From positions 26,304-90,303 of the forward strand of contig CAYTFU010000001.1 in the NCBI GenBank assembly GCA_964437185.1: a DNA stretch of 64,000 bases, read 5' to 3'. Source of the stretch: an uncultured Candidatus Saccharibacteria bacterium (GTDB taxonomy: Bacteria; Patescibacteriota; Minisyncoccia; Phycocordibacterales; UBA2100). Numbering within the stretch: position 1 is the stretch's first letter; each line of letters opens with the position of its first letter. The notes under the pieces are model-generated. The model made no database searches. It saw only the letters and a list, made by a program, of their open reading frames with translations, and was not told where the DNA came from. Position numbers and translations under genes: made by a program. Below are positions 4,272 to 20,732 of the stretch, one piece after another.

Positions 4272-4904
4272 TTAGCCTCGGATTTCAACGAGCGTACCGG
4301 GTTTCCCTGGAATTGCACCTGAGATCAGGAGCGTACTCGTCGTTGCGTCGACTTGGAGGACTTTCAAATTTTTGACCGTCACCCGGTCGCCGCCCATTCG
4401 GCCCGCCATGCGCATACCGGGGACGACTCTGCCGCCCGCGCGACCACCGCCGCCGATTGAGCCCGGACTGCGTTCTCTATTTTTCTGACCGTGCGATCGA
4501 GGACCGCCGCTAAAACCATGACGCTTCACAACGCCCTGAAAACCCTTTCCCTTTGAAATAGCTGAGACGGCGACTACATCGCCAGGCACAAACACCGACA
4601 CATCAATCACATCGCCCCGCTTCGCCTCACCTGAAAGCGGAAATTCCCTTAGGTGTCGAAACATTGAAAGATCTTTGAGGTGGCCCTTTTGTGCGGCATT
4701 CACATTTTTCTCCTTGCGCGACCCAAATCCAATCTGGGCGGCGTCGTACCCATCCTTTTCCTTCCCCTTCACTTGCGTGACTGTGATCGGACCTGCGGTA
4801 ATGATCGTCGCGGCAGAAACGACACCCTTCTCATCGAAGATTTGTGTCATCCGACCCTTTGTTCCGAGCATGAATTTCACCCCGTTAGAAGTTTTGTCTG
4901 TCAT
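4272..4904 (-). CDS. rplC: 50S ribosomal protein L3
   Basis: 210-aa ORF with the L3 N-terminus (MLGTKGRMTQIFDEKGVVSAATII) and a Gly-rich C-terminal loop. It is not preceded by rpsJ as in the canonical order. Confidence 0.9.
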   Translation of the reverse strand: MTDKTSNGVKFMLGTKGRMTQIFDEKGVVSAATIITAGPITVTQVKGKEKDGYDAAQIGFGSRKEKNVNAAQKGHLKDLSMFRHLREFPLSGEAKRGDVIDVSVFVPGDVVAVSAISKGKGFQGVVKRHGFSGGPRSHGQKNRERSPGSIGGGGRAGGRVVPGMRMAGRMGGDRVTVKNLKVLQVDATTSTLLISGAIPGKPGTLVEIRG

Positions 4905-5687: not shown

Positions 5688-8540
5688 TTATATCGGCACA
5701 CACGTGCCATTCACCTTCACAAATCCTGCAGCACAGTTTTCTTCAAACGTTGGTAGCACATTGACCGTGGACGATCGCGAGACACTCGAAGGAGTCGAGC
5801 CTGGAAGGCCCTGACAGACGATGGTGAAGACTGTCTGAGACGCGATGGGCGAGCTCGTCTTTGCTCCCGTCGGAGTGCTCCACACACCCGTGGCATTGCT
5901 GCCCGTTCCATCGCCGTTGGTCGCCGTCACGCTGCATGACGAAACATTGCTTGCGGTCCAGAAAACATTTACGGACGTGCCGACGCGTACGAGGAGCGGG
6001 ATAACGCTCCACGAAGTGATGGCGGGAGCGGCGGTACCTATGCATCCACCGACAGAACAACCATTCGTACACATCTGAACGAGCGCACCCGTACAACTAT
6101 TGACGACATTGTTGCCCGAACATACGTTCGTGCATGATAGCGGCGGCACGCAGAGACTCGTACTCGGGTCGAGAGTCCATAGAGTGGGGCAACCGATGAA
6201 CGTGCACACGCCGGGTGATGTTTCAGTATATCCGGAGGGGCATCCCATAAACTGACATGAATTTCCGACAAATATGGATCCGATTGGGCAGTCGATTATC
6301 GGCACACAGACGCCGCCCACAAGGGTGTACCCAGGAAAACACGACGTCGGTACACACTGACCATTCACGTCGCGTGACTCACCTACTGGACATTGTGGAA
6401 CACACCCAGAAAGCGTGCTACCCGGGGTGCAGCCATTGGGAAGACATTCGCCATTGGTCATAAGTGTGGTTCCAGACGGGCATGATCCCTGACACTCTGG
6501 AAGTGTGCTGCCGGGAGAGCAGAATGTGATGCTAGAGGCCACAACGTCTATCCACGCGGAACAGTTATTGTCCTCGTTTGAACCCTCATTGATCGCCCCG
6601 AGGTCGGTCGCCGAACTTTTGTCAGCACATGCGCGCACAGAGTACGAGCCAGCCGTCAAAAAAGTGTGTGTCGCAGTAATCGGACTACTTGCGCCTGCTG
6701 CGAGCGCGGAGAAATGAATCGCTGGCGTAAGATCCACAATGGTACCGGTTCCTCCAGCGCCACCCGCAACCTGGAAGAAGTTGTTGAAGCCAACACCTAT
6801 GGATACAGGACCCCTATTCATTATAGTGGCAGACAAGGTAAACGGAGCATTGATAGTGGCACTGCCGGGACTTGTATTTACCGCGGTAAGATCGGGCAGA
6901 TTGTCGACACAAGAGCCACTCTGAAGCACTTGTCCTGCCGGACAAGCCGTGGGCACACACACACCGTCCAGCAAGACCTGACCGGTCGGACACGACACCA
7001 CAGGCACATTAACATTCACCCACTCACTGCAGTTGTTGTTTTCATACGCACCCTCGTTGATGGTACCGGCGTCTGTGGAGGAGCTCTTGTCGGCGCACGC
7101 TCGCGTGGAGTATGTGCCGCCTGCGGTAAAGGTGTGTGGAAGAGATATATCGTTGCTCGTGCCTCCTCTCAGGGATGAGAGAGAAACAGCGGGAGTGAGA
7201 TCGGTGATGGTACCTCCGCCGTTTGCTTCTGATGCGACCTGGAAGAAGTTGTAGAAGCTGATCCAACTCCCCGTTGAGCCAACGCCCGCGTTGGTAATGA
7301 TGGCGGAGAGCGTGGTCGCAACGTCGACCGTGGCGGACGTCGGGCTCGTGTTGAGTGCGGTGAGGTCGGGGCCGAGGGTGCCGCCAGTGTTGTAGAACGT
7401 GCAGGAGACGATGTTGTCTTGGTTCAACTTCACGCCGCCGATGATGCCGTCGACGATGGTGCCGGTGAGCGTTCCGTTGTCGGTTGCGCCCGTGCAGGAA
7501 GCGCCGAGGATGGTGTGGCCGCTCTGCTGGATTTCTTCAACAGACCATGGGCCGAAACCGCTGACTCTGAAAGGCTCCGTGTAGCCTAGGAAGTCGGTGG
7601 TTTTCGAGACGCCGGCGACCGTGAAATCCCACCCAGAGGCTGGAGCCTGATCGTTGGTTGTGCCCAAGTTGCCATCGACGTCGTAGATCTTCTTGACGGT
7701 GATGGTGCCTCCGCATTGCTCACGTGCGATGCTCGCCAAGTCAGTAGCGAGCGTGCTGAAGTTTGAGGAGAATACGCTGTTGGGACTTGCGATTGCCTGG
7801 AGGTTCGCCGCATCGAGACCGCTGCCGATGCCGATGGCGAGGATGCGTGTTCCCGATGACTTGATGGAGTTGGCGACCGTCACTGCTGCTGAGACTGCGG
7901 TGCTCTCGCTCACGCTCGTGTACCCACCGGTCCCATTATTAATCGTGTTTGGGTTGCCGTCGGAGGCGAATATGACGAGGTTGTTGGCTGAGGGACGGGG
8001 GTCGAAGGTGCTCTGCGAAGCGAGGAGTGCGCCCTGCCAGTTGGTGCTCCCTGATCCGTCGATGGCATCGATCTCGGAATTTACCCGCGAAAGATCATTT
8101 CCGTAGGGTAGGAACTGGAGACGGACTGTTGCTGTGTTATCGAACTTCACGAGCGAAAAGAGCGTGGGGGTTTCTGGGAGGAGTGCGCTTGTGAATCCCT
8201 TCAACGCAGACTTCATCTGAGAGAGTTCCGTGTTATCGATTGATCCCGAGACGTCCATCACGAGCGAGACGTCGAGACCGCAGGTGCCCTCGACAGGCAA
8301 GCTACACTGCCCCGCGTAGTCGGCATCGGATGGGCATGATGCGGGGACGATCTGGAGGCCGGAGTGCGAGGCGTCGGTGAATTGGACTTCGGAGGATGTA
8401 AAAGGCTTCGATGAAACTTGTGTAAAAGCTCCACTCAATATAAGTGCGGCCGCAAGCAAAGCGCCGACCACAAATACACCCTGCCATAGGTCTGCAGGAG
8501 CTACCGAGTCATCCTCACGTCGCCTCTTAGGAGCTACCAT
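5688..8540 (-). CDS. giant membrane-anchored surface protein: vWA domain, CnaB-like segment, two CARDB-like repeats and a Cys-rich C-terminal module
   Basis: 950 aa with an N-terminal transmembrane anchor. vWA MIDAS residues are present (DVSGS...T...ASDGNPN). TITVKKIYDVDGN...GWDFTV resembles a CnaB-type fold. Two tandem CARDB-like domains of about 120 aa (NTSP[TG]SAT...ACADKSS). Then a series of C.PG.TL..G.CVP repeats. Confidence 0.7.
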   Translation of the reverse strand: MVAPKRRREDDSVAPADLWQGVFVVGALLAAALILSGAFTQVSSKPFTSSEVQFTDASHSGLQIVPASCPSDADYAGQCSLPVEGTCGLDVSLVMDVSGSIDNTELSQMKSALKGFTSALLPETPTLFSLVKFDNTATVRLQFLPYGNDLSRVNSEIDAIDGSGSTNWQGALLASQSTFDPRPSANNLVIFASDGNPNTINNGTGGYTSVSESTAVSAAVTVANSIKSSGTRILAIGIGSGLDAANLQAIASPNSVFSSNFSTLATDLASIAREQCGGTITVKKIYDVDGNLGTTNDQAPASGWDFTVAGVSKTTDFLGYTEPFRVSGFGPWSVEEIQQSGHTILGASCTGATDNGTLTGTIVDGIIGGVKLNQDNIVSCTFYNTGGTLGPDLTALNTSPTSATVDVATTLSAIITNAGVGSTGSWISFYNFFQVASEANGGGTITDLTPAVSLSSLRGGTSNDISLPHTFTAGGTYSTRACADKSSSTDAGTINEGAYENNNCSEWVNVNVPVVSCPTGQVLLDGVCVPTACPAGQVLQSGSCVDNLPDLTAVNTSPGSATINAPFTLSATIMNRGPVSIGVGFNNFFQVAGGAGGTGTIVDLTPAIHFSALAAGASSPITATHTFLTAGSYSVRACADKSSATDLGAINEGSNEDNNCSAWIDVVASSITFCSPGSTLPECQGSCPSGTTLMTNGECLPNGCTPGSTLSGCVPQCPVGESRDVNGQCVPTSCFPGYTLVGGVCVPIIDCPIGSIFVGNSCQFMGCPSGYTETSPGVCTFIGCPTLWTLDPSTSLCVPPLSCTNVCSGNNVVNSCTGALVQMCTNGCSVGGCIGTAAPAITSWSVIPLLVRVGTSVNVFWTASNVSSCSVTATNGDGTGSNATGVWSTPTGAKTSSPIASQTVFTIVCQGLPGSTPSSVSRSSTVNVLPTFEENCAAGFVKVNGTCVPI
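6545..7367. repeat. intragenic tandem duplication (two CARDB-like domain copies) inside the 950-aa gene
   Basis: Protein segments aa ~392-513 and ~550-665 are about 60% identical. Off-frame ORFs at 6505..6717 and 7033..7254 share SVAELLSAHAR.EY, which shows the similarity holds at nucleotide level. Confidence 0.6.
7002..8396. repeat. copy A of a ~1.39 kb direct repeat (5' coding region of the vWA adhesin paralogues)
   Basis: aa 49-513 of the 950-aa protein are near-identical to aa 46-509 of the 1186-aa protein. Off-frame ORFs at 7693..8106 vs 27332..27757 and 7033..7254 vs 26621..27034 are almost identical, so nucleotide identity is high. Confidence 0.8.
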
Positions 8541-8647: not shown

Positions 8648-9502
8648 TCATAGCCTATCGGAATCTACTTTCATCTGAATAGTGTGCCGGTTGTCGCTCA
8701 CTGCGTTTTTAAACGCCATAACCCCTAGGCCCGCAACTTGAGGATCATTGCCGGGATATGCCACGAGCCATTGCTGCTGCGAAAGATCTGAAACCGCAGC
8801 GTGCGCTTTCTCTACCTGCGCCAACGCCTCCTCGTAGCGGCCGAGCTCAAACAATGCGGTTGCGCTCGAATTGAGCAGCCAAGGATTTGAGGGAAAATAG
8901 ATAAGCCCTTTTTGAGTGACTTGCTCTGCATATGCATATTGATTGCCCTTTAAGAGCACCCAAGCCAGATCATTGAGAGCTGCCCAGTTGCGAGGATCTG
9001 ATTCTAAATAGCGTTCGTAATCCTTCACTGAGTCGTCGTACCTACCCATATACCCCTCGATCAAACCCCGAATATAGTACGAGGATGCCGACACGGGACC
9101 ATTCGGAAGATTGATCTCCGCGTTTATTCGCACCATTGCTCTATTGAAATTACCCCTCAGAAACGACACGCGAGCGAGCTGGTGGTATACGCCGGGGAAG
9201 GTGGAGTCGAGTTTGAGCGCTTCTTCATACCAATACTCGGCACGTTTAATATCGTACTGGTCGACGTTGCTCGCATTAAAGTGCACGTTGCCATACTCGT
9301 ACGCGAGCTCGGCCGACGGATAAAACGCGAAGGTGATATTCTCTCTCGTCTGACTTTCGGAACCGCTTACGTGCAATACGACACCGACAAAAATGATAGT
9401 AGCTGCAAACAAAAGAAACACGAACTTTCTCACGGACATGCGGACAGCATGATGAATTAACCAACGCATACCGATTAGTATAGCGCGCGAGCCTTTAAGC
9501 AA
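8648..9502 (-). CDS. membrane-anchored TPR-repeat protein
   Basis: One hydrophobic helix (FVFLLFAATIIFVGVVL; possible internal start MSVRKF at 9439), followed by TPR-like helices (AEYWYEEALKLD, YERYLESDPRNWAALNDLAWVL, LGRYEEALAQVEKA). Confidence 0.55.
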   Translation of the reverse strand: MLKGSRAILIGMRWLIHHAVRMSVRKFVFLLFAATIIFVGVVLHVSGSESQTRENITFAFYPSAELAYEYGNVHFNASNVDQYDIKRAEYWYEEALKLDSTFPGVYHQLARVSFLRGNFNRAMVRINAEINLPNGPVSASSYYIRGLIEGYMGRYDDSVKDYERYLESDPRNWAALNDLAWVLLKGNQYAYAEQVTQKGLIYFPSNPWLLNSSATALFELGRYEEALAQVEKAHAAVSDLSQQQWLVAYPGNDPQVAGLGVMAFKNAVSDNRHTIQMKVDSDRL

Positions 9503-9532: not shown

Positions 9533-10630
9533 CTACGACCTCCACCCAATGTGTTTCAGATAATCCGAAAACTCTGGAGACATTTCGGCAAGCACAGAGA
9601 TTTGCCGCCTCATGAAATTCGTAGCGGGTCGCTCTTGCATATCGAGCACATCTTGACCAACACTCGGCAACCCAGATGCACTGTCGACAAAGTCCTGCAG
9701 TATTGATTTTATTCTCTCATCGCCTGCCGAACCTGCTCGAGCAGAACGGACCGCGGCGTAATGCAATAGAAACCTCAACCTCTGCTCTTGCGTGAAATTA
9801 CTCTCCGCATCAAGAGCCTCCATCAGCGCAATTGTGCGCTCATACGATTCGTCGATAATTCTGTGTTCCGTTTCTGGAAAATATAGTGAGATCGTCCCAA
9901 AGGCGATTGAGCGATTTCTATACAAATGCACCTCCCTTATTTTCGGCATTGTTGAAGTCCCGGTAGCGTCTAGCAAGCTATCGCCAGCAGCTACTAGTTC
10001 GCGTATAACTGCCGCAACCTTGAGTTGCTCTGAGCTCTCTACGTTCACGCCTTGCTCATGAAGCTTCTCAGCCAGAATGACTGCCGTTCTAAAGTTCGCG
10101 AAGGGCGTCGGGTTGAGCGCGTTTGAATCCTTAAGAAGGAGTAGTGTCGCTTCTCTTACATCCCCCCCGGCTTGGGTCAAGTACGCATTATAGGGAGGAG
10201 TATCAAACACGAGTTGCGTGAGATTTTCATTGTCCCCTGCAATACGATACAGACCACCGAATCCGTTATACACCCTCGCTTTAAGCTGATCATCGATGCG
10301 AGGACTTGCGGTTATGTCCTTCAAAATGGCAACACCATTCTGGGTATCATCTCCCTCAGATCGACTGAGCAGCGATCGAGCGAGAAAGCTGTTGGCAGCA
10401 CGCGATTCTCGGTCTGTCGAAGATACCGCCACGGCTTGAGAGCTGTACGCGACGGCCTCTGCGAAATCTCCCTTTCGATAAGACGCGTCTGCAGATCTCA
10501 TCAATGATAGAAACCTCTGCGCATGATACTGCGTGTACCCTACATACCCCCCTATACCAACGACTAGAAACACAGCCACCACAACGAGCGGAGAAATGGG
10601 CCTTTTAGCTTGTGGTGATAAATCGCTCAT
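9533..10630 (-). CDS. hypothetical membrane-anchored protein
   Basis: Long ORF 9533..10867; the likely true start is MSDLSPQAKRPISPLVVVAVFLVVGIGGY (single TM helix). The rest is a soluble domain with no recognised motif. Confidence 0.45.
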   Translation of the reverse strand: MSDLSPQAKRPISPLVVVAVFLVVGIGGYVGYTQYHAQRFLSLMRSADASYRKGDFAEAVAYSSQAVAVSSTDRESRAANSFLARSLLSRSEGDDTQNGVAILKDITASPRIDDQLKARVYNGFGGLYRIAGDNENLTQLVFDTPPYNAYLTQAGGDVREATLLLLKDSNALNPTPFANFRTAVILAEKLHEQGVNVESSEQLKVAAVIRELVAAGDSLLDATGTSTMPKIREVHLYRNRSIAFGTISLYFPETEHRIIDESYERTIALMEALDAESNFTQEQRLRFLLHYAAVRSARAGSAGDERIKSILQDFVDSASGLPSVGQDVLDMQERPATNFMRRQISVLAEMSPEFSDYLKHIGWRS

Positions 10631-10664
10631 TCGTCCTTTAATGCACGATTCCGTATTGCATATG

Positions 10665-10952
10665 TTACAGAGCGCCATCGCTGCCGGCGCCGTCGGTACC
10701 GTCGCCACCACCACCACCGGCGCCGTCGCCGGTGATAGCGCTATCCGCGGCAGCACTGTCGGCAGCACTGTCAGCCGGCGCATCTGCGTGGACCACGGAA
10801 AGACCGGCCTCTCCTCCACCATCCAGTGAAAGCTGCTTTTTCGACGGGAAGAGAACAAGTAACACAAGGAATCCTAGAAAAACCGCAGATGCGGCCACCG
10901 CACCTCTCGCCATGCGCCCCATCCGACCATACGTATTCTGTATTACGATCAT
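10665..10952 (-). CDS. small membrane protein with Gly/Asp/Ser/Ala-rich C-terminus, divergent from ycaO
   Basis: 95 aa with a TM helix AVAASAVFLGFLVLLVLF, then ADSAADSAAADSAITGDGAGGGGGDGTDGAGSDGAL. The gene contains a 12-nt tandem repeat. It overlaps the antisense ORF 10732..11037, so coding status is uncertain. Confidence 0.3.
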   Translation of the reverse strand: MIVIQNTYGRMGRMARGAVAASAVFLGFLVLLVLFPSKKQLSLDGGGEAGLSVVHADAPADSAADSAAADSAITGDGAGGGGGDGTDGAGSDGAL

Positions 10953-11051: not shown

Positions 11052-12491
11052 ATGATTTTTGACGGCATCCCCTTTTCCCACCTCTACCAACACAAAAAAG
11101 ATGGGCTCCACCGACGGGTCGTCCCCTTCATTCGATTCCTTGAACAGCGGCTCAATGTCTCGGTATTGGCAGATCGAAAAGATTTTCCGTACGAGCGTCC
11201 TGACCTCGCAGAGCAATTCTCCCTCGCGCATATCCTGAAACAAAAGGGGATCATTAAGTCATTTAGACCTCAACAAGCGCTGTGCGACGAGCCTCCCATA
11301 AAATCTTGGATGTGCGAGTACACATCCCCCATTCGGTCTGTTACTGCTGGCGCATCCATAGACAGCGATGAGGACGCGCTAACTGCGGCTCTTGCTGAAG
11401 GGCTTGAGCGATACATCTGGATTACGCAGGATGACTATTTCAAGCGCCCGATCCGAGCATCGGTACAAAAAATCGCCTCTTATGGAAAATATATAGATCC
11501 GCGACAATTTGTGTCATTCTCAGAAGCACAACGAAAGGCTGATTCCAAACTGACGATAAAGGAAGACTCGACCTACATGTGGATTCGGGCACGTTCTCAT
11601 ACCGACAACAAAACTGTGTACGTTCCAGCGCAAACGATAAGCTCTGCATGGCGCCCATTACAACAAACCCCCGCAGAGCCCTTGATACGTCAACAATCAA
11701 CCATAGGACTGGCTACCTGGCCGACACACAAAGGGGCCATCCTCGCGGGTGCCCTCGAAGTGATCGAGCGCGAGGCATACGCCATTATGTGGTTTAATCA
11801 ACTCACCGTACCGCGAATATTGCTTCTCCCACTTCAGGAGGAAAATGCCCCCCTCAACGCGCTGGTAAAAAAATGCGAGCAATATCAGCTGCGCGTACAC
11901 GCCCTTCAAATGCCCACCGACGCGCCCGCTCACGCCATCGCAGCCATACTCGAGGATATCTCTGGGCACGCGCCTCGTTTTGCTATAGGCCTCAAGGCGC
12001 ACCGCTCATTGCCACAGGCTATAGAAGGAGCGATCTTGGAAGCACTGCGTGCTCGGCGCGGAGCGCGAAAATTCGTCGCCACTGGTCCATGGGACGGAAC
12101 CACGCCCATTGAAAAAATCGGCCATCGCGAACGTCTACACTATTGGGCAGATCCCAAAAACTCCGAGCGTCTCTCTTTCTTAATTGGGGGTGCTGAATTT
12201 GATTACACAAAAACACCCTGGGAAAATGATACTGAGACAGAGCACCTCAATCGAGTACTCGATTGGTGTAGGGCCAATGATTTCACCTGCGCCTCTGTGT
12301 CGCTCGGAGACTCAAAGGCCAACCCAACGCCTTGGTATATTGAAATGGTCGTGATACCAGAATTGCACCCAATACATTTGACTGAGCCCATGAGACACCT
12401 CGGTGGCATGAGGTTGAAAAACGTACCTAGACAATTGGGATTCACTCCTCGTGATACCCCCTTTATTGACGCTCCGCACCCCTATACATAA
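11052..12491 (+). CDS. ycaO: YcaO-domain protein (ATP-dependent cyclodehydratase / amide-activating enzyme)
   Basis: SPIRSVTAGASIDSDEDALTAALAEGLERY closely matches the E. coli YcaO ATP-binding region (KGATK..ALASALGEYFERL). The second motif IGLATWPTHKGAILAGALEVIEREAY matches SNGLA.GNT..EA...GL.EVIERD. The C-terminus is Pro-rich (DAPHPYT). Confidence 0.8.
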   Translation: MIFDGIPFSHLYQHKKDGLHRRVVPFIRFLEQRLNVSVLADRKDFPYERPDLAEQFSLAHILKQKGIIKSFRPQQALCDEPPIKSWMCEYTSPIRSVTAGASIDSDEDALTAALAEGLERYIWITQDDYFKRPIRASVQKIASYGKYIDPRQFVSFSEAQRKADSKLTIKEDSTYMWIRARSHTDNKTVYVPAQTISSAWRPLQQTPAEPLIRQQSTIGLATWPTHKGAILAGALEVIEREAYAIMWFNQLTVPRILLLPLQEENAPLNALVKKCEQYQLRVHALQMPTDAPAHAIAAILEDISGHAPRFAIGLKAHRSLPQAIEGAILEALRARRGARKFVATGPWDGTTPIEKIGHRERLHYWADPKNSERLSFLIGGAEFDYTKTPWENDTETEHLNRVLDWCRANDFTCASVSLGDSKANPTPWYIEMVVIPELHPIHLTEPMRHLGGMRLKNVPRQLGFTPRDTPFIDAPHPYT

Positions 12492-12496
12492 AAACC

Positions 12497-13213
12497 ATGA
12501 CTTTATTTATCTCACACATCCATTCCGAGATACGGCGAGCGCGCACTACGAAGCGGGGTGCTACGCATAGCGCGAGAGATGTTCCGAGGGGTACGCACAA
12601 GGAATACGCACGCATGCAGAAGGTTGCCCTTCCTCCACCGAACCCAATACTTGCTCCATTCGGCGAGGTGATACATACAAGGACTTCCTACCGCAATTGC
12701 ACGCACGGCCAGGACGCTGCCATACCCATCGAGACATTAAGTACACTTTTGGGATCAGCACTCAAAAAGCGAGCCGAAGCTTCGAATAGAAACTACCCTT
12801 CGGGAGGAGCACTATATCCGGTCGAGACCTATTTGATCACCGAGGCACTCGACGGATTCGGACCAACCGTATTTCACTACAATCCCACGCACCACGAGCT
12901 TGAAACATTGTGGCCGCTCTCCTCCCGTCTCACCCTCAAAGACCTGGCTCGAAAACCGGATGATCTTCATTTTTCATCGCTCATAGTTTTTACAAGCGTG
13001 TGGAAGCGCTCTTCGGCAAAGTATGGAGACCTTGCCTACACGCACGCACTTCTTGAAGCCGGACATATGTCTGAGAACATACTTCTCACGGCAACTGCCC
13101 TCAACCTTCTCACACGACCAATGGCTGGCTTTTCTGATGAAAAGATAATTGAGATTTTAGATCTGGACCCCGAGGAAGAGCAGCCGATACATACCATCGT
13201 ACTGTGCCGATGA
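12497..13213 (+). CDS. SagB-type (nitroreductase-fold, FMN) dehydrogenase
   Basis: Shows RTSYRNC...PIETLSTLLGSAL and the diagnostic PSGGALYPVETYL, as in the PSAGGLYP motif of TOMM dehydrogenases. The likely start is the internal MQKVALPP at 12614. It lies 6 nt downstream of ycaO and its end overlaps the next gene. Confidence 0.65.
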   Translation: MTLFISHIHSEIRRARTTKRGATHSARDVPRGTHKEYARMQKVALPPPNPILAPFGEVIHTRTSYRNCTHGQDAAIPIETLSTLLGSALKKRAEASNRNYPSGGALYPVETYLITEALDGFGPTVFHYNPTHHELETLWPLSSRLTLKDLARKPDDLHFSSLIVFTSVWKRSSAKYGDLAYTHALLEAGHMSENILLTATALNLLTRPMAGFSDEKIIEILDLDPEEEQPIHTIVLCR

Positions 13214-14862
13214 CTACCACTATGGACTTACGTGCAGAATTACGCGATGCCATAGCCGCCCAAGCATTCGTGCGCGCCTCCGCCCATACGCGCATAATTG
13301 GCGGGGACGAAAAATCCTTGGACTCTTGGATTTTTGACTTCCGAGCGCTCCTCTTGCAGCCCCGATGGCTCAATACCTACGCGGAGATCTTCTGGGATAC
13401 GCATAAAAACCTGTACCCATTCCAGGTCTGTGGAATGGAGAGTGCTGCAATATCTCTGGTCGCCGCCATCGTTATGAAAGGCACAGAACGCGGGACGCCC
13501 GTAAATGGTATCTACATACGCAAATCACGGAAGAGAACGGGCCTTTTACGACAAATTGAAGGTACCCCAAACGACAAGAAGGTTATTTTGGTCGACGACC
13601 TCATCAATTCGGGAAGCACCTTCAAAAAACAAATCGACATCCTATCGCGAAGCCATCTCTCCGTTGCGCATATTTTTGCCCTCCTCGCATTTCGTCCAAT
13701 AGAGGAGTACGGCGCTCTCACATCTCAAGGCATTTCCATCACACACCTATTCACCTTGCAGGATTTCAATCTGCCCCCCGTCAAAAACAAGAAAAACACG
13801 CCGATACAAAACACCTTCGAGACCTTGTGGCACTTCGAAGCTCCCAACCCAAGCTACAGCCTGGTGGTACAAAAGTCCGCACCCGCGATCGACGAGGATA
13901 CCGTCTATTTCGGAAGCGATGCTGGCATTTTCTATGCGCTGGACCAAAAAACCGGAGATATTCGCTGGTCGTTTCGCATCGGAAAATTCCCCGAAAACAA
14001 AGGCATACTTTCGTCCCCAGCACTCCATAATGACCGAGTGTTTTTTGGCGCATATGACGGCACTGTATACGCACTCAAATCCGACACGGGTGCCGTGGCG
14101 TGGAAATATAGCGATGCCGATTGGGTCGGCTCGTCGCCCTGCATTGCGTCAAATCTTAACCTTCTATTTGTCGGACTGGAATTTGGCCTCTGGAACAAGC
14201 GTGGCGGAATCGTGGCCCTCAACATTGAAACCGGCAGTGAGGTTTGGCGACAAAAAATGCCGACACTTACACACTGCTCTCCACTGTATATACCGGAAGA
14301 GAATATGGTGGTCGTGGGGAGCAATAATGCAACAATCTACGCGTACGAGGCTAACACCGGTACGCCGCTATGGCATTGTTATGTCGTCGGTGACGCGAAA
14401 GCTTCATTTGTGTACGATAAATCACGGCGGTGTATTTTATTTGGGACAGTGAACGGACAATTTTACGCAATCTCCGCTCAGAACGGCAACCCACTGTTTA
14501 GTAAAGAAATAACGGGGGGTATGTACTCGACCCCGACTATTGACGGCGACACGACTTACGTCGCGTCCCTCGATAAGTGCATATACGCCATCGACATGAA
14601 CACGTGGACCGATCGCTGGACGTTTGAGACAGGCGGGCGGATCTTTGCCTCGCCCATAGTACTAAATGGACATGTGTGGATCGGCTCAAACGACGGAAAA
14701 CTATATGAGATTAACGCGGCGAGCGGCAAGCTAAAAAGTTTTTTCCAAGCAACCGAGAGGATAGTTAACAGAATTGCCCATAATGAAAAGACGGGGGTAT
14801 ACTTCGTGCCAACGCAGGCAAATGAGATGTATTGCCTTCGCAAGATTCCTACGGTGGTATAA
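13204..14862 (+). CDS. fusion protein: type I phosphoribosyltransferase (OPRTase-like) domain plus PQQ-type beta-propeller
   Basis: The N-terminal ~200 aa carry KKVILVDDLINSGSTF, the PRPP-binding loop, and an OPRT-like F.F..L.. element. The C-terminal ~350 aa carry about 7 PQQ/BamB-like blades (TVYFGSDAGIFYALDQKTGDIRWSF, GTVYALKSDTGAVAWKY ...). Its start overlaps the SagB stop, suggesting translational coupling. Confidence 0.6.
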   Translation: MPMTTTMDLRAELRDAIAAQAFVRASAHTRIIGGDEKSLDSWIFDFRALLLQPRWLNTYAEIFWDTHKNLYPFQVCGMESAAISLVAAIVMKGTERGTPVNGIYIRKSRKRTGLLRQIEGTPNDKKVILVDDLINSGSTFKKQIDILSRSHLSVAHIFALLAFRPIEEYGALTSQGISITHLFTLQDFNLPPVKNKKNTPIQNTFETLWHFEAPNPSYSLVVQKSAPAIDEDTVYFGSDAGIFYALDQKTGDIRWSFRIGKFPENKGILSSPALHNDRVFFGAYDGTVYALKSDTGAVAWKYSDADWVGSSPCIASNLNLLFVGLEFGLWNKRGGIVALNIETGSEVWRQKMPTLTHCSPLYIPEENMVVVGSNNATIYAYEANTGTPLWHCYVVGDAKASFVYDKSRRCILFGTVNGQFYAISAQNGNPLFSKEITGGMYSTPTIDGDTTYVASLDKCIYAIDMNTWTDRWTFETGGRIFASPIVLNGHVWIGSNDGKLYEINAASGKLKSFFQATERIVNRIAHNEKTGVYFVPTQANEMYCLRKIPTVV

Positions 14863-14870
14863 TTTGTACG

Positions 14871-16280
14871 ATGCTGCTGCAGCTACAAAGTCTCCTGCGC
14901 AAGACACAAATTGCTTTAGCTCCTACACTCAAAGCATACAAGCGAATCTTCAGACTCCACGAGATCGAGGAGTCGCTCGTGCTTAAGTCATCGCTCGGAG
15001 CGATTCTCTTTTTCTTTTTCCTCACGTTCCAAATGTGGATGCGCTCTAGCTCCACGACATTAAGCACGGCAGCGGCAGGAAAAGCTGTGTGCTGGCCCTA
15101 TTTTCAAAATTGTTCAGATCTCTACTTCCTAGAAACATTCCCGAGCAGCTATTCTCAGTCTCTATGGTACATGGTTCTGTTTGGAATAATGCTCTCGGTC
15201 GCTTACGCCATGTGGCGGAAACACTGGACCGTCGCACACCTTCTACTGGTACCGCTCCTCCTGTGGAAGGTGTTTTCGATATTTGTGCTGAGTTATACGA
15301 TGAACGGCCCATACGATTACTACCACGTCGTCTTTACGGTCATTTTCCTATTTCTACCCTACAAAGAATATTTTTTGAAGCTCGCGGTAGTCATTCTCTA
15401 TTTCTTGTCGGCAACGATCAAACTTCATTCGACATGGGTTCTTGGTACGTATTTCTCGGCCCTACAAACCGGCCTCCCCCTCTTCCCCGATTCACTCATC
15501 CCTCTTGCTACTAATCTCGTTATATTTGAACAAATTGTCGGTGCATGGTTTCTACTTTCCAGAAATCTGCTCTGGCAGCGAATATCGCTTGCGTTCTTGA
15601 TATTCTTTCATCTCTATTCCGGAATTTTTGTCTACTATCACTATCCATCGGTTATTCTTCCGCTTCTTATCATCCTTTTTGGTCCTCTTTATACATACAC
15701 GTCGCCACCCACGGACCGGAAATCAATTCCGAGTTGGATATTTGTGCTGATGGTTATGCTCTTCCAGGTCCCTGGACTTATCATCCCCTCACCTGGTGAT
15801 CGACGGATGACACTCGAAGGCAACCGCTACGGAATGTTTATGTTCGAGGCAAATCATCAATGCATTGCAACTATTACGACCGTACGCAATGATCGCGCTG
15901 TCGCTGGGACCATCGATAAGCCGATTACCGAATCACCCTTCTCTTGCGGAAGATTTTATTGTGTCACCCGAAAAACTCAGTACCAAAACGGCGCAAATGC
16001 CGTCACGACGACACGGCATGAGGCGGCAAGTGCCTGGAATCGGTGCGACCCACACACATTTTGGTCCCAGTACCACACTCAGTGCGATAGGGACGCCGGG
16101 ATTGTTCGCATTGGAATGACCTTCGACCATTCGATCAATGGTGGTCCATTCTATCGAATCGTCGATACCTCGAACATATGCGATTTGTCATACTCCGCTG
16201 CTTCACACAATGAATGGATAGCCGTCCCACCCGCGGCGAAAATCGTGGGATACCCTGTTAAAAATTTCTATCAATTTTGA
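14871..16280 (+). CDS. polytopic membrane protein, paralogue 1 (possibly HTTM / vitamin-K-carboxylase-like fold) with Cys-containing C-terminal domain
   Basis: About 8-9 predicted TM helices. It is a paralogue of the gene at 19326..20732 (shared RLHEIE, LEGNxYGM/LFMFEANHQCI, RCDP, FDHSINGG). The track start 14832 overlaps the upstream gene; MLLQLQ at 14871 is the likely start. Confidence 0.4.
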   Translation: MLLQLQSLLRKTQIALAPTLKAYKRIFRLHEIEESLVLKSSLGAILFFFFLTFQMWMRSSSTTLSTAAAGKAVCWPYFQNCSDLYFLETFPSSYSQSLWYMVLFGIMLSVAYAMWRKHWTVAHLLLVPLLLWKVFSIFVLSYTMNGPYDYYHVVFTVIFLFLPYKEYFLKLAVVILYFLSATIKLHSTWVLGTYFSALQTGLPLFPDSLIPLATNLVIFEQIVGAWFLLSRNLLWQRISLAFLIFFHLYSGIFVYYHYPSVILPLLIILFGPLYTYTSPPTDRKSIPSWIFVLMVMLFQVPGLIIPSPGDRRMTLEGNRYGMFMFEANHQCIATITTVRNDRAVAGTIDKPITESPFSCGRFYCVTRKTQYQNGANAVTTTRHEAASAWNRCDPHTFWSQYHTQCDRDAGIVRIGMTFDHSINGGPFYRIVDTSNICDLSYSAASHNEWIAVPPAAKIVGYPVKNFYQF

Positions 16281-16558
16281 TATGGAACCAGCAACGACCA
16301 CAAACCTCATCGTGCTCAAACAGCTCGCAGGCAACGACCCTGTGACGCTCTACCCAATACAGATCATGATGGAACCGCATGTCGATCTAATCATCGCTGC
16401 CTGGACCGCCCTGTGGTTTACCACACTGACTATAGTGCTCTACAAACTCTTTCGAGAGTGGCGAAAGCGGCATTCGTAGGGCTCTCGCGCAGCTGCGATC
16501 CGCATCGTTTTCAGCACCCCCATCCATGGGTGCCAAAATGCCCAAAAGCGTTGATTAG

Positions 16559-17602
16559 TTAACAACGGGTTCGCGCTAAAGCGATTTTCATTCGTATATT
16601 TTGTAAAAATGTTGCGGGCAAAACTAAGAAACCGCCATCGGGACGCTCGACAGTCCTTGTAGGAAAGATTCGAGCTGACCTGACGACGTGTTTGCAGCAT
16701 TGCAGGACAGCTATCCCGCCACCCCCGATTTGGACGGCGTCGTAAAGCCGCGAACTCTTATGCACTATTGATGAGATTGCGGGATCGTACAAAAATGGCC
16801 CGAGACCGTGGAATACAAAAGCATTGTGTATCTTGCCAAAGGATTGCAATCTGTGAGGATGGTGCCCGAAGACTACATCGGCACCTGCGTCACGCGCTAC
16901 TGCCGCAAGCCGCTCTTGATGTGCGTCCGGCGTGAACTGAGCCGGAGCTAAAAAATTAGCCATTATGTGGAGAGATACGAATACTAAGTCTGCGCTTTTT
17001 CGTGCGTACTCAATCGCATTATGTATATTTTCTTCGGTAGCCCTTGAAACACACGGCGCACCGCTTGCTGAATAAAACCTTTCCGGCAACATGTCGGTAA
17101 ATGCCGCGAATGCTATCGTCGCGTTTTTTACGCGAACAAAACGTACCGCCGATTCTATATCGCCTACTCCCGCGTGTTGGATGTGATGTTCATCTAAGTA
17201 TTTAGTCGTTTCCTGTATTCCTTCGTGTCCGTAGTCGGCAATATGATTATTACTTAACGAAAGAACGAGATTAGGATGTAGATCCGAAAGAAAGGCAGCC
17301 TGTGTGCGGGTAAATCCTAAAGTAAAATGCTCGGTCAATCCCTTATCCCGCGGGCGAGAGCGCTCGTACACGCATCCCTCAAAGTTGGCAAACACCGCGT
17401 CAGCCTCCTGCAACCGAGTCAGAAACTTACCGAAATATCGCAGCGCGACACCTTTATTTGCCCCGAATCGAGACCGCATCAATCGGCTGCCCAACACAAG
17501 ATCCCCGATCAAAGCAATATCAAAGGTCTCGTTACACTGCGAGCAATCCCACCCCGTCATCGTCGGTCCCGAAAATAGCATGCGTAAAAGATGGTAGCAC
17601 AC
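16559..17602 (-). CDS. CapA/PgsA-family metallophosphoesterase (poly-gamma-glutamate capsule synthesis-like)
   Basis: Family motifs in order: IALIGDLVLGSR, FANFEG, SLSNNHIADYG, VVFGHHPHRLQ, FHGLGPF. Confidence 0.65.
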   Translation of the reverse strand: MCYHLLRMLFSGPTMTGWDCSQCNETFDIALIGDLVLGSRLMRSRFGANKGVALRYFGKFLTRLQEADAVFANFEGCVYERSRPRDKGLTEHFTLGFTRTQAAFLSDLHPNLVLSLSNNHIADYGHEGIQETTKYLDEHHIQHAGVGDIESAVRFVRVKNATIAFAAFTDMLPERFYSASGAPCVSRATEENIHNAIEYARKSADLVFVSLHIMANFLAPAQFTPDAHQERLAAVARDAGADVVFGHHPHRLQSFGKIHNAFVFHGLGPFLYDPAISSIVHKSSRLYDAVQIGGGGIAVLQCCKHVVRSARIFPTRTVERPDGGFLVLPATFLQNIRMKIALARTRC

Positions 17603-18852: not shown

Positions 18853-19233
18853 TTACATCATCTTTACATCGATGGAGACGCCAGATGGGAGATCGATATT
18901 GGTGAGCGCTTCGATGACCTTGGGCTCGGGATTCATGATATCGATCATGCGCTTGTGGATGCGCATCTCAAACTGCTCTCGGGAGTCTTTGTCGATGAAA
19001 GCTGCACGGTTGACCGTGTATTTCTTGATATCGATGGGGAGCGGAACGGGACCAATAACCTCGGCATTGTGACGGGCGGCGACGTCGATGATTTGCTTCG
19101 TCGCTCCGTCGAGCACTCCGTGCTCATAGGCGCGCACGCGAATGCGCAAACGACTCGGCCCTGCCGATTTCTTTGCCCCACGAGAAGCTCGCGCCTTCGC
19201 AGGGGCCTTGGTAACCTTCGATTCCGCTGTCAT
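18853..19233 (-). CDS. rpsJ: 30S ribosomal protein S10, displaced from rplC, with N-terminal extension
   Basis: RLRIRVRAYEHGVLDGATKQIIDVAARHNAEVIGPVPLPIDIKKYTVNRAAFIDKDSREQFEMRIHKRMIDIMNPEPKVIEALTNIDLPSGVSIDVK aligns along the whole of E. coli S10. The ORF extends to 19290 with about 45 extra residues; the start at 19233 (MTAESK) is more likely. Confidence 0.85.
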   Translation of the reverse strand: MTAESKVTKAPAKARASRGAKKSAGPSRLRIRVRAYEHGVLDGATKQIIDVAARHNAEVIGPVPLPIDIKKYTVNRAAFIDKDSREQFEMRIHKRMIDIMNPEPKVIEALTNIDLPSGVSIDVKMM

Positions 19234-19325
19234 AGAACCCAAAGAGTATGCACCAGAGGAGGGGGAAAAGCAAATTTTTGTATCGGTCATTGGATAGCGC
19301 GAAACGGACGTGTAATACTGGGCGA

Positions 19326-20732
19326 ATGCAAAAGAGCTTATTAAGGGGGTACCACCGCCTCTTTGCTCTCCACGAGATCGAGACGAGCGAGATCCTACAG
19401 CTACTCTATTATGTAGTTAGTTTCTCATTCTTTGTCACCTTTTTTCTCTGGATTGAAAGAAGCGTCATTAGTATCTCAACATTCCAAAGTGGCGGGCACG
19501 TCTGCCCCCCATACCTTCCATCGTGCGGTGAATATTACTTCCTGCAAGCCCTCCCATACGGATACACGCAGAGCGCATTTTACGTATTTCTCTTTCTAGT
19601 CTTGGGGTATGGAGTGTACTCCGCATACCGTAAAAACTGGGTGGCCGCTCACGGCGCACTCTTAGTCTGCCTCGTATGGAAAGTGGTTTTGGGATTTTTT
19701 CTCACCTATGGCGTACTAGGAAATTTCGACTATTACGACATGATCCTCGCCAGCGTATGGCTCTTTATGCGAGAAAAAGAATACTTCGCAAAAATCACTT
19801 TTGTATTTCTGTACGTACTCGCATCTTCTATCAAAATCGACGGAGGGTGGATTTTTGCCAACTACTTCAACTCCCTTTTCACAGGAGCCCCAATCTTTGC
19901 GGCCCCGTATTTGCCTTTCTTTACAAACATTCTCATTGCGATGCAAATGATCGGAAGCTGGTTCTTGCTTTCGAGTAACAGCAAACTGCAGAAGGCAGCA
20001 TTCTTTTATTTTTTACTCTTCCACGCGTATTCAGGGATTATCGTCAACTACCGCTATATTGCTATCTCAATACCCGCGTTATTCGTCCTGTTCTCACAAC
20101 CCGGCCACTTTCAAATACAAAAGGTCTCCAAAACCACCCTTCTCGGGTACGGTTTTCTATTCTTACTCATCTGCGGACAACTTATCGGAATTCTCACGCC
20201 AGGTGATCAGAAAAAAACCCTCGAGGGCAATTACTATGGCCTGTATATGTTTGAAGCAAACCATCAGTGCATCTCGGAAACCACTACCTATCGCAAAGAC
20301 GCAGAGCCTGTCGTAACAAGCCGTGAAAATCATGTCGCCAACAATCGCTGCGATCCGTACCGCTACTGGTTCCCGCTTAAGACCCTCTGCACTCGCGATA
20401 GCATCATCGAGAGAATCGCATGGACGTTTGACCACTCAATCAACGGTGGCGCGTACGAACGCATCGTAGACGTGGAAGACGCGTGCGCGCTTACCTATCG
20501 GGCAATCGGCCACAATGACTGGATACAAATCGACAAGCCTGAGTTTTTGGGTACCCCTGTGTATAAAACGGGCTTCGGATACAACCTCAACTCTCAGATA
20601 AAAGTCCCTCCCGAGATAATTATTGACGATCCGTTGCTCGAAAAGATCAAGCTGGCCTATTGGATTCTCTGGTCGGCGTCCCTGGCTTTTGCGTGCGGCG
20701 CACTAATATACGTACACCTGAGAAAACGTTGA
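19326..20732 (+). CDS. polytopic membrane protein, paralogue 2 of 14871..16280
   Basis: Same architecture and motifs (ALHEIETSE, LEGNYYGLYMFEANHQCI, RCDPYRYW, FDHSINGG) plus an extra C-terminal TM helix. The ORF track starts at 19248; it is divergent from rpsJ. Confidence 0.4.
   Translation: MQKSLLRGYHRLFALHEIETSEILQLLYYVVSFSFFVTFFLWIERSVISISTFQSGGHVCPPYLPSCGEYYFLQALPYGYTQSAFYVFLFLVLGYGVYSAYRKNWVAAHGALLVCLVWKVVLGFFLTYGVLGNFDYYDMILASVWLFMREKEYFAKITFVFLYVLASSIKIDGGWIFANYFNSLFTGAPIFAAPYLPFFTNILIAMQMIGSWFLLSSNSKLQKAAFFYFLLFHAYSGIIVNYRYIAISIPALFVLFSQPGHFQIQKVSKTTLLGYGFLFLLICGQLIGILTPGDQKKTLEGNYYGLYMFEANHQCISETTTYRKDAEPVVTSRENHVANNRCDPYRYWFPLKTLCTRDSIIERIAWTFDHSINGGAYERIVDVEDACALTYRAIGHNDWIQIDKPEFLGTPVYKTGFGYNLNSQIKVPPEIIIDDPLLEKIKLAYWILWSASLAFACGALIYVHLRKR

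Follow-up and report, generated by a model that had tools for sequence, protein, structure and literature searches.

In a 64,000-nt stretch of DNA from an uncultured Candidatus Saccharibacteria bacterium (contig CAYTFU010000001.1 of assembly GCA_964437185.1, positions 26,304 to 90,303; hereafter the window), a single gene encodes a phosphoribosyltransferase (PRTase) domain related to orotate phosphoribosyltransferase (OPRTase) and fused to a β-propeller. The gene follows those of a YcaO protein and a SagB-type dehydrogenase. We propose that the fusion protein is a cytoplasmic accessory factor of a Patescibacteria-specific peptide-maturation island, in which the propeller docks and the PRTase domain carries out a step dependent on phosphoribosyl pyrophosphate (PRPP). 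We put the probability of this reading at about 0.45.

The core of the island is a small membrane-anchored protein, transcribed divergently from YcaO and SagB. YcaO and SagB would convert Cys, Ser and Thr residues in the tail of this protein to azoles before export or membrane insertion, and accessory enzymes would also modify the peptides in the cytoplasm before either event. The fusion protein would act on the same substrate as YcaO and SagB: its BamB-like propeller may dock the peptide, or the enzymes working on the peptide, while the OPRTase-derived domain may perform a PRPP-dependent step on the docked substrate, most likely phosphoribosyl transfer to this substrate rather than to orotate. 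It would usually be co-translated with SagB without being a compulsory subunit of the cyclodehydratase. The gene and its two domains are as follows.

13210..14862 (+): PRTase-propeller fusion gene, 550 aa; the mechanical open reading frame (ORF) begins at GTG 13204
13210..13767 (+): OPRTase-derived type I PRTase domain, aa 1–186; FDFR motif, RKSRKR...IEG flexible loop, VILVDDLINSGST PRPP loop, AFR162
13816..14844 (+): 8-bladed BamB/YxaL-like β-propeller, aa 203–545

The Fusion Protein Is Continuous and Coupled to SagB

The ORF at 13204..14862 (+) was confirmed in the window. The start at 13204 given in the initial annotation exists as an ORF boundary, but the true start is probably ATG 13210, because a 100%-identical database protein (P0001) is 550 aa long and independent gene calls agree. 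This ATG (13210–13212) overlaps the SagB stop codon TGA (13211–13213) as ATGA, and junctions of this kind recur in relatives, in agreement with the translational coupling to SagB that had been claimed for the gene.

That an OPRTase-like PRTase and a propeller are joined in one protein, as first read from the sequence, is borne out by profile matches and by structure prediction. The C-terminal ~350 residues match the Pfam families Beta-prop_ACSF4 (1.4e-50) and PQQ_2 (1.8e-42). The AlphaFold2 model, made with 38 homologues as input (predicted local distance difference test, pLDDT, 90.8; predicted TM-score 0.79), has an α/β domain at residues 1–186, a short linker and eight four-stranded blades at 203–545. 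Neither a signal peptide nor a hydrophobic N-terminus was found in the sequence, and the protein is therefore predicted to be cytoplasmic.

The PRTase Domain Keeps the PRPP-Binding Machinery

The PRTase domain scores below the cut-offs of both Pfam Pribosyltran (PF00156; 23.5 bits, cut-off 26.3) and NCBIfam TIGR00336 pyrE (46.3 bits, cut-off 106.8). Using a profile of 15 family members against solved structures in the PDB, we obtained matches to the OPRT domain of human UMPS (2WNS, E=4.8e-12) and then to 2P1Z, 2YZK and the Mycobacterium tuberculosis structure 5HKF. The OPRTase alignments span the N-terminal xDxR motif (FDFR), the flexible catalytic loop, the PRPP loop and the Arg of the (D)R motif (AFR162). 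In the flexible loop, RKSRKRxG...IEG aligns to RRKETKDYG...VEG of 2WNS, with R104-K-S-R-K108...E117-G118 kept family-wide. The PRPP loop KKVILVDDLINSGSTF lies in the N-terminal half and contains the invariant D129, while D130, N133 and G135 of VILVDDLINSGST are at least 90% conserved. Its hydrophobic strand, two acidic residues and Gly/Thr-rich turn are those of a type I PRTase, and the AlphaFold2 model has the Rossmann-like α/β core, with alternating β and α elements over residues 1–186.

Conservation was checked in 81 family members taken from genomic loci, 54 with a YcaO gene nearby and 27 without. D43, R45, Q72, E77, R104, K105, S106, R107, K108, E117, G118, D129, D130, N133, G135, R162 and Y167 are equally conserved in the two groups. 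Nine distant multi-domain variants keep all of these residues except R162 and Y167, with S106 changed to E, the residue found in true OPRTases. The close clade retains R162 (47/54 YcaO-linked and 25/27 YcaO-less members), and the distant variants have D, G, E or Q in its place. The SG-K-x-S motif of the hood is not conserved in the alignment with solved OPRTases. In OPRTases, the Arg of the DR motif, to which R162 aligns, and the hood Lys contact orotate. Of the catalytic residues that had been singled out for checking, the Asp-Asp pair of the PRPP loop is intact, whereas the SGK motif is not conserved.

The invariant PRPP and catalytic-loop residues throughout the family favour a real PRPP-dependent function. 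By our inference, the domain binds PRPP or a closely similar ligand and probably uses it, and its acceptor site is not a conserved orotate site. A true PyrE is improbable, given the missed pyrE cut-off and acceptor residues that vary across the wider family. No pyr gene was found among the annotated genes of the window (mainly 1–24 kb).

The Propeller Resembles BamB and YxaL

In Foldseek searches the propeller was closest to idealised designed 8-blade proteins, BamB and YxaL, with PQQ dehydrogenases ranking lower; BamB and YxaL were the best structural matches (TM-score up to 0.85, normalised on the target). The scores for the BamB equivalog TIGR03300 (123.7 bits, cut-off 285) and the PQQ dehydrogenase family TIGR03075 (78.7, cut-off 480) are both far from membership. 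A quinoprotein was ruled out by the family cut-off, the missing signal peptide and the nearest folds, which are not dehydrogenases. Membership in BamB was ruled out by the equivalog cut-off and by the lack of a signal sequence or lipobox, so that the likeness is in fold only; Patescibacteria are not known to have an outer membrane. Based on its non-catalytic fold relatives, the propeller is best described as a BamB-like interaction scaffold. The repeated blades seen in the initial annotation were right, while its PQQ propeller becomes a cytoplasmic BamB/YxaL-like scaffold and not a quinoprotein.

Association With YcaO and SagB

The two genes upstream of the fusion gene are the following.

11052..12491 (+): stand-alone azoline-type YcaO, 479 aa, ends PHPYT
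12497..13213 (+): SagB-type flavin mononucleotide (FMN) dehydrogenase, TIGR03605 108 bits (cut-off 78); stop codon runs into the start of the fusion gene

The YcaO protein scores 180 bits with TIGR03604 (SagD family), below the cut-off of 219. The C-terminus of its family is a near-invariant PHPF[PSA], with PHPYT in the window copy, and a PxPxP motif is associated with azoline-forming YcaOs (PMC12338566). The closest solved enzymes, in both sequence and fold, are the heterocyclases LynD and TruD, and about 467 of 479 columns of the model (pLDDT 93) align with LynD. The model has no E1-like domain, and its first 104 residues do not have the order of elements of a RiPP (a peptide that is ribosomally synthesized and then modified post-translationally) recognition element (RRE). 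An RRE-like domain in these extra 104 N-terminal residues found no support, as there is no Pfam match, the element order is wrong and the alignment with LynD runs nearly end to end. Profile searches gave no ThiF or PqqD match in any protein of the cluster.

Of the 165 relatives found when one genome per species was scanned, 78 loci were retrieved and their neighbourhoods counted. In tblastn searches, a YcaO gene turned up no more than 10 kb from the fusion in 50/78 loci and SagB in 51/78, and the multi-pass membrane protein MEMB described below in 26/78. Family clustering found YcaO in 51/78 loci, and in 25 of the 33 loci with at least 8 kb on both sides. The junction from SagB to the fusion is at most 30 nt in 30 of 34 co-directional cases, with a median overlap of ~8 nt, and the genes stay close in at least 10 different orders and orientations.

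The association was also examined in reverse, starting from 80 loci of clade YcaOs in metagenome contigs. Close YcaOs were taken to be those at least 36% identical to that of the window, with 3 kb or more of downstream sequence. Of these, 32/33 have SagB behind them and 22/33 have the fusion in the vicinity; among distant YcaOs the corresponding figures are 7/7 and 0/7. Long loci without a fusion keep the divergent operon of peptide, F3 and TPR genes (see below) and often have PaaK-like and PP-loop genes instead. Conversely, in six loci (L041, L042, L044, L052, L056, and L058) the fusion stands beside the peptide operon with no YcaO within 10 kb, and in YcaO-less fusion loci the link to the peptide operon is often through MEMB and the small protein S65. 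As YcaO–SagB pairs occur without the fusion and fusions occur without YcaO, the fusion is best seen as a frequent, clade-specific accessory and not as an obligate subunit of the cyclodehydratase. The initial suggestion that it replaces a missing E1-like protein is therefore unsupported as an obligate role (22/33 for the fusion against 32/33 for SagB, and occurrence without YcaO). The parallel idea of a substrate-recognition or scaffold partner gains support from six enzyme fusions and from an AMMECR1 module shared with YcaO, both described below.

One distant locus (L147:801-7317) has a B12-binding radical SAM enzyme upstream of the YcaO–SagB pair, and a 780-aa YNCE/NHL-type β-propeller protein comes right after SagB (n=1–2). 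A gene in this locus that had seemed fusion-like turned out to be the B12-radical SAM enzyme.

Candidate Precursor Peptides

On the opposite strand, divergent from YcaO, lies an operon with a small-protein gene.

10665..10952 (-): candidate precursor/substrate, 95 aa; basic N-terminus, transmembrane helix, VVHADAP box, acidic Gly/Ser/Asp/Thr tail
9533..10630 (-): F3, membrane-anchored TPR-like protein, 365 aa, after the small peptide gene
8648..9502 (-): TPR protein, 284 aa, most frequent neighbour family
5688..8540 (-): VWA + CARDB (+ TPR-like) protein, 950 aa, sharing the minus-strand operon of the peptide gene

Upstream of nearly every F3 gene lies a small ORF of common design, with a basic N-terminus, a hydrophobic helix and then, a median of 18 residues on, the box G-x-G-[VIT]-A-H-A-[DE]-[AV]-P. 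Its A-x-A|D form resembles a signal-peptidase site, though it lies unusually far from the helix. In a set of 88 unique peptides from 77 sources, the tail of ~40 residues is rich in G (32%), S (16%), D (16%) and C (10%), has almost no K or R and carries a net charge of about -7. Cys is present in 79/88 peptides, and all 88 contain Cys, Ser or Thr. The residue preceding Cys in the tails is most often Gly, and many tails resemble microcin-B17-type cores (CGGDCGGDCGG...). The window peptide at 10665..10952 (-) reads MIVIQ...VVHADAPADSAADSAAADSAITGDGAGGGGGDGTDGAGSDGAL, and L005:5844-6191 and L009:7500-7751 are examples of its homologues. These small proteins are probable substrates of YcaO and SagB.

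The composition of the tails varies with the presence of YcaO. Their Cys share is 10.4% in YcaO-containing loci vs. 4.4% in loci without YcaO, and three or more Cys residues occur in 29/44 peptides of the former and 3/11 of the latter. Tails are more Asp-rich where YcaO is absent. For comparing fusion presence with peptide features, only 3 peptides come from securely fusion-less loci. The tails in three YcaO-less loci (L035:8041-8268, L053:8048-8383 and L058:8160-8564) are extremely Asp/Gly-rich with few Cys residues and have long poly-Asp runs or YSQASYY motifs, a hint that what the fusion does may concern the acidic tail and not the azoles.

A mechanical ORF of 444 aa at 9533..10867 (-) was rejected as an over-call, as public gene calls give a 95-aa and a 365-aa gene in its place. 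The 95-aa peptide gene overlaps the 5' part of this ORF in another frame, and F3 probably starts at ATG 10630.

Family Distribution and Fused Variants

With E<1e-5, a word-indexed protein search returned 1192 clusters. The best 120, apart from a few shorter partial entries, cover 95–99% of the query at 535–570 aa, and the named sources are Kaiserbacteria, Paceibacterota and Parcubacteria. Database labels read only "PQQ-binding-like beta-propeller repeat protein", or at JGI "BamB/orotate phosphoribosyltransferase". The 165 relatives in the one-genome-per-species scan are nearly all from Patescibacteria. An exhaustive hidden Markov model search with the PRTase-domain profile gave 210 representative clusters (50% identity) with E<=1e-30. 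Lengths of 520–580 aa predominate in the top 150, and this PRTase subfamily is therefore almost always joined to a propeller.

No characterised member or homologue of the PRTase-propeller architecture was found among the database matches, and literature searches turned up neither a PRTase-propeller fusion nor a PRTase or propeller partner of YcaO. The architecture had been called unprecedented, which holds for characterised proteins; as a family it is very common and vertically conserved in Patescibacteria. The initial annotation had also named an assembly artefact and characterised homologues with an unrelated function as objections to its reading: the architecture proved widespread, and no homologue with a defined function came to light.

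Two relatives were found in unexpected places. A fusion homologue with 37% identity (L077, 9797..11596) lies on a 4.7-Mb contig of Bryobacterales (Acidobacteria) with none of the island's genes; it may have been transferred horizontally or may serve another role. The full island is also present on a contig of 7 kb that was binned as Methanosarcinales (L033), which is probably mis-binned DNA of the candidate phyla radiation (CPR).

In rare, atypically long members, extra domains sit on either side of the PRTase-propeller unit.

P0138: formyltransferase
P0188: Stf0 sulfotransferase
P0216: Asp/Asn β-hydroxylase
P0266, also L065:6067-8637 (an uninterrupted genomic ORF): radical SAM domain
P0242, P0259: HlyC-type acyltransferase
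L025:10007-13252: AMMECR1-containing module, 1082-aa ORF

Over 537 aa, the ~530-aa AMMECR1 module of the last of these shares 32% identity (E=7e-81) with the N-terminal part of an AMMECR1-YcaO protein of 1073 aa (L126:6541-9762, -). The module is also found free-standing (L055:5479-7389, -), ~1 kb from a fusion gene. No relation was found between the AMMECR1-linked region and family F6, one of the variable neighbours listed below. That the unit is joined to unrelated tailoring enzymes and shares a partner with YcaO suggests a common substrate-docking element within a single modification pathway. Another long member, P0228, has ~690 additional residues with no Pfam match.

The Island Lies in a Ribosomal Operon

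The remaining genes and the boundaries of the island are listed here.

14871..16280 (+): MEMB, multi-pass membrane protein with a Cys-containing C-terminal domain
16282..16479 (+): S65, conserved 65-aa single-transmembrane protein after MEMB
18853..19290 (-): rpsJ (S10), island boundary
4272..4904 (-): rplC (L3), island boundary

Normally rpsJ and rplC are adjacent. In the window they are separated by the island of ~14 kb, and rplD, rplW and rplB come after rplC. The placement between S10 and L3 recurs in many related loci. The gene context first described was incomplete, as it lacked the candidate substrate peptides, the membrane components and this ribosomal-operon location.

In an unbiased census of neighbours, the TPR protein was found in 52 loci (97 copies) and F3 (~380 aa) in 46, both on the opposite strand. 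Variable neighbours include PaaK/F390-like adenylating enzymes, two kinds of PP-loop ATPase, a DsbA-like protein and family F6. MEMB has more than 600 clusters, all annotated as hypothetical, with invariant Cys pairs (a CWPYFQxC loop, and NHQC and other Cys residues in the C-terminal domain); no relatives were found in Pfam, NCBIfam or the PDB sequences. A resemblance of MEMB to motifs of the HTTM/vitamin-K carboxylases could not be supported. S65 always comes after MEMB. The curated families of Pfam and NCBIfam cover none of the small peptides, F3, MEMB, S65 or F6.

A MEMB paralogue with 38% identity lies beyond rpsJ (19248..20732, +). Just past the island is a PGA_cap gene (CapA-like, poly-γ-glutamate capsule; 16559..17602, -), found in 0/78 related loci. 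The VWA + CARDB protein (5688..8540, -) clusters with the TPR family and is somewhat like the Bat-type VWA/TPR membrane proteins. The contigs of L008, L013, L031, L049 and L062 can carry several sets of peptide, YcaO and SagB genes and only one or two fusion genes, and some contigs have two fusion paralogues ~18 kb apart (L014 and L062 are on one contig). Scans for promoters and terminators gave no signal above chance.

Alternative Explanations

Several observations weigh against the proposed accessory role in peptide maturation. About one third of the YcaO–SagB pairs of the clade have no fusion within 10 kb, and azole formation therefore does not need the fusion in cis. The window peptide has Ser and Thr and no Cys, and the predicted N-in/C-out topology would put the tail outside the cell, so that any cytoplasmic modification would have to precede export. 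The sulfotransferase, formyltransferase and LpxO-type hydroxylase fusions are also compatible with a sugar or small molecule as substrate. Of the long loci, 15/17 with S10 or L3 have YcaO nearby vs. 8/16 of those without, and part of the gene proximity could be synteny inherited within one class. No type I PRTase is known to act on a peptide, and our literature searches gave none. The strongest form of the proposal takes up the initial suggestion of a peptide-phosphoribosylating enzyme. The fusion would be the first PRPP-dependent peptide or protein phosphoribosyltransferase, with a propeller that captures a Gly/Cys/Asp-rich precursor bound for the membrane, and would attach ribose-5-phosphate to the peptide, or to a heterocycle that YcaO and SagB have formed; this is for us a possibility on the unlikely side.

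Four other explanations have to be set against it. The fusion could be a purely non-catalytic partner, that is, a recognition, scaffold or anti-export "holdase" subunit of the YcaO–SagB synthetase that functionally replaces the E1-like/RRE protein, with the PRTase domain as only a structural or PRPP/nucleotide-sensing module. This would account for the lack of any E1-like or RRE protein in the cluster and of an RRE-like YcaO N-terminus, and it agrees with the tight coupling of SagB to the fusion, the BamB-like scaffold fold and the fusion to many different enzymes, which resembles RRE behaviour. A β-propeller protein also follows SagB in a distant YcaO clade (n=1–2, a weak point), and for RiPP precursors with Sec signals it has been proposed that a partner must cover the signal until they are modified (PMC12452194). 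A subunit of this kind is, however, hard to reconcile with the YcaO–SagB pairs that lack a fusion and the fusions that lack YcaO, and the invariant catalytic-loop Lys and acidic PRPP pair, kept even in distant variants, would not be usual in a domain with a structural role only. YcaOs that stand alone, with no partner, are also known, and altogether we find the non-catalytic partner unlikely, though worth keeping in view. Somewhat doubtful too, in our judgement, is a small-molecule enzyme, a PRTase for a nucleobase-like or cofactor-like acceptor that serves nucleotide salvage or supplies the island, for example MEMB, with a ribosylated metabolite or donor; the peptides would then not be its direct substrate, and the propeller would mediate oligomerisation or docking to a membrane complex. 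The known type I PRTases all use small acceptors, the full PRPP machinery is present, R162 is conserved in the close clade, the fusions with a possible sugar or lipid substrate named above fit, and in YcaO-less loci the fusion adjoins MEMB and S65. Such an enzyme sits less well with the missed pyrE equivalog cut-off (46 vs. 107 bits), with R162 and Y167 not being conserved family-wide, and with a PRTase that is almost always fused to a protein-interaction fold and is translationally coupled to a peptide dehydrogenase; the HlyC-type (protein Lys acyltransferase) and YcaO-linked AMMECR1 fusions likewise point to a protein or peptide substrate.

The third alternative is an unrelated housekeeping neighbour, whose adjacency would only reflect a conserved syntenic block between rpsJ and rplC in one class. 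Many genomes have the island within their S10 ribosomal operon, YcaO is more often associated there, and the family is largely confined to one lineage. We nevertheless hold this to be very improbable, since the proximity survives at least 10 rearranged gene orders and occurs in loci away from ribosomal genes, ATGA-type SagB overlaps recur, one genome has the AMMECR1 module joined to the fusion protein while a second has it joined to YcaO, and the other fusions are to tailoring enzymes. The last, an artefact in which a frameshift or mis-assembly joined two separate genes, was ruled out and is negligible: nothing was found to support it, while the same continuous architecture is present in more than 1000 clusters and 165 species genomes and the two-domain model is confident.

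Significance

Patescibacteria have tiny genomes and few recognisable biosynthetic pathways. The island is kept by hundreds of species, often in the S10 operon, which suggests a core cell-surface or host-interaction role and not an optional antibiotic. Apart from the fusion, no component of the island combines an active site for PRPP, a nucleotide precursor, with a fold that docks proteins. Were the fusion to modify or chaperone the peptides, either a new chemistry, phosphoribosylation of peptides, or a new class of RiPP recognition module unlike the RRE would come with it, along with an explanation for a YcaO that can dispense with an E1-like partner when its precursors bear a membrane or signal sequence. 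Should the phosphoribosyltransferase reading be true, both the post-translational modification and the RiPP-like class would be new, and the class would be found near-universally in one major ultra-small lineage. We rate the finding as a pathway of the azole-peptide type with an uncharacterised accessory protein and an unusual type of precursor, and the chance that genuinely new chemistry is hidden in the island as roughly one in five. The newly delineated peptide family offers a concrete substrate for experiment.

Comparison With Known Systems

The YcaO–SagB pair in CPR bacteria is already known at the level of genome mining. Clusters for linear azol(in)e-containing peptides (LAPs), with YcaO and a nitroreductase, were found in CPR genomes by antiSMASH, including 51 Parcubacteria (PMC7298704); that paper makes no mention of the fusion protein or of this peptide family. 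In the literature searched, we found no description of the fusion family, the peptide family, MEMB and S65, or the placement in the ribosomal operon.

The island shares several features with the synthetases of LAPs and other thiazole/oxazole-modified microcins (TOMMs), such as McbBCD, BalhCD, SagBCD and LynD/TruD. Its YcaO is LynD-like in fold with a PxPxP-like C-terminus, the SagB dehydrogenase is directly downstream (adjacent in 32/33 close and 7/7 distant loci), and the candidate substrates are rich in Gly, Ser and Cys like microcin B17, with the Cys/Ser/Thr-rich core of such precursors. It differs in having no E1-like or Ocin-ThiF partner and no RRE. Its candidate precursor has a transmembrane or signal-like N-terminus and an AxA-type box instead of a soluble leader, and the island adds the PRTase-propeller, MEMB, S65 and TPR proteins and sits in a ribosomal operon. 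The fusion itself differs from the E1-like and Ocin-ThiF partners, as its domains are a PRTase and a propeller and not an E1/ThiF fold with an RRE, and its co-occurrence with YcaO is not obligate.

Compared with OPRTase (PyrE; 2WNS, 5HKF), the PRTase domain has a homologous type I fold with an aligned xDxR motif, the catalytic loop RK-x-x-K...EG, the acidic pair of the PRPP loop plus, within the close clade, the (D)R-motif Arg. However, it falls below the pyrE and Pfam cut-offs, the SG-K-x-S hood is not conserved and R162 varies across the family; it is almost always joined to a propeller and stands in a peptide-maturation context, not in a pyr operon. The propeller is like BamB and YxaL in its eight blades and in being a scaffold-type, non-quinoprotein fold, whereas it differs from BamB in having no lipoprotein or signal sequence, in its predicted cytoplasmic location and in being joined to an enzyme domain.

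Bufferins are signal-bearing, Cys-rich, metal-binding RiPPs of the Sec pathway that have to be held back from export until modified, and a partner has been proposed to hold their signal peptide (PMC12452194). The island peptides resemble bufferins and oxazolins in being Cys-rich precursors with signal-type N-termini and, as proposed here, cytoplasmic modification before export. The enzymes are MNIO and DUF2063 proteins there and YcaO and SagB here, and metal binding by the island peptides would be conjecture. In one respect the PRTase-propeller unit behaves like the RRE (PqqD-like), a portable module by which RiPP enzymes recognise substrates, as it stands free beside maturases or is fused to many unrelated tailoring enzymes. 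It differs from the small winged helix of the RRE in combining a PRTase with a propeller, and while its peptide binding is putative, the unit retains an enzyme active site.

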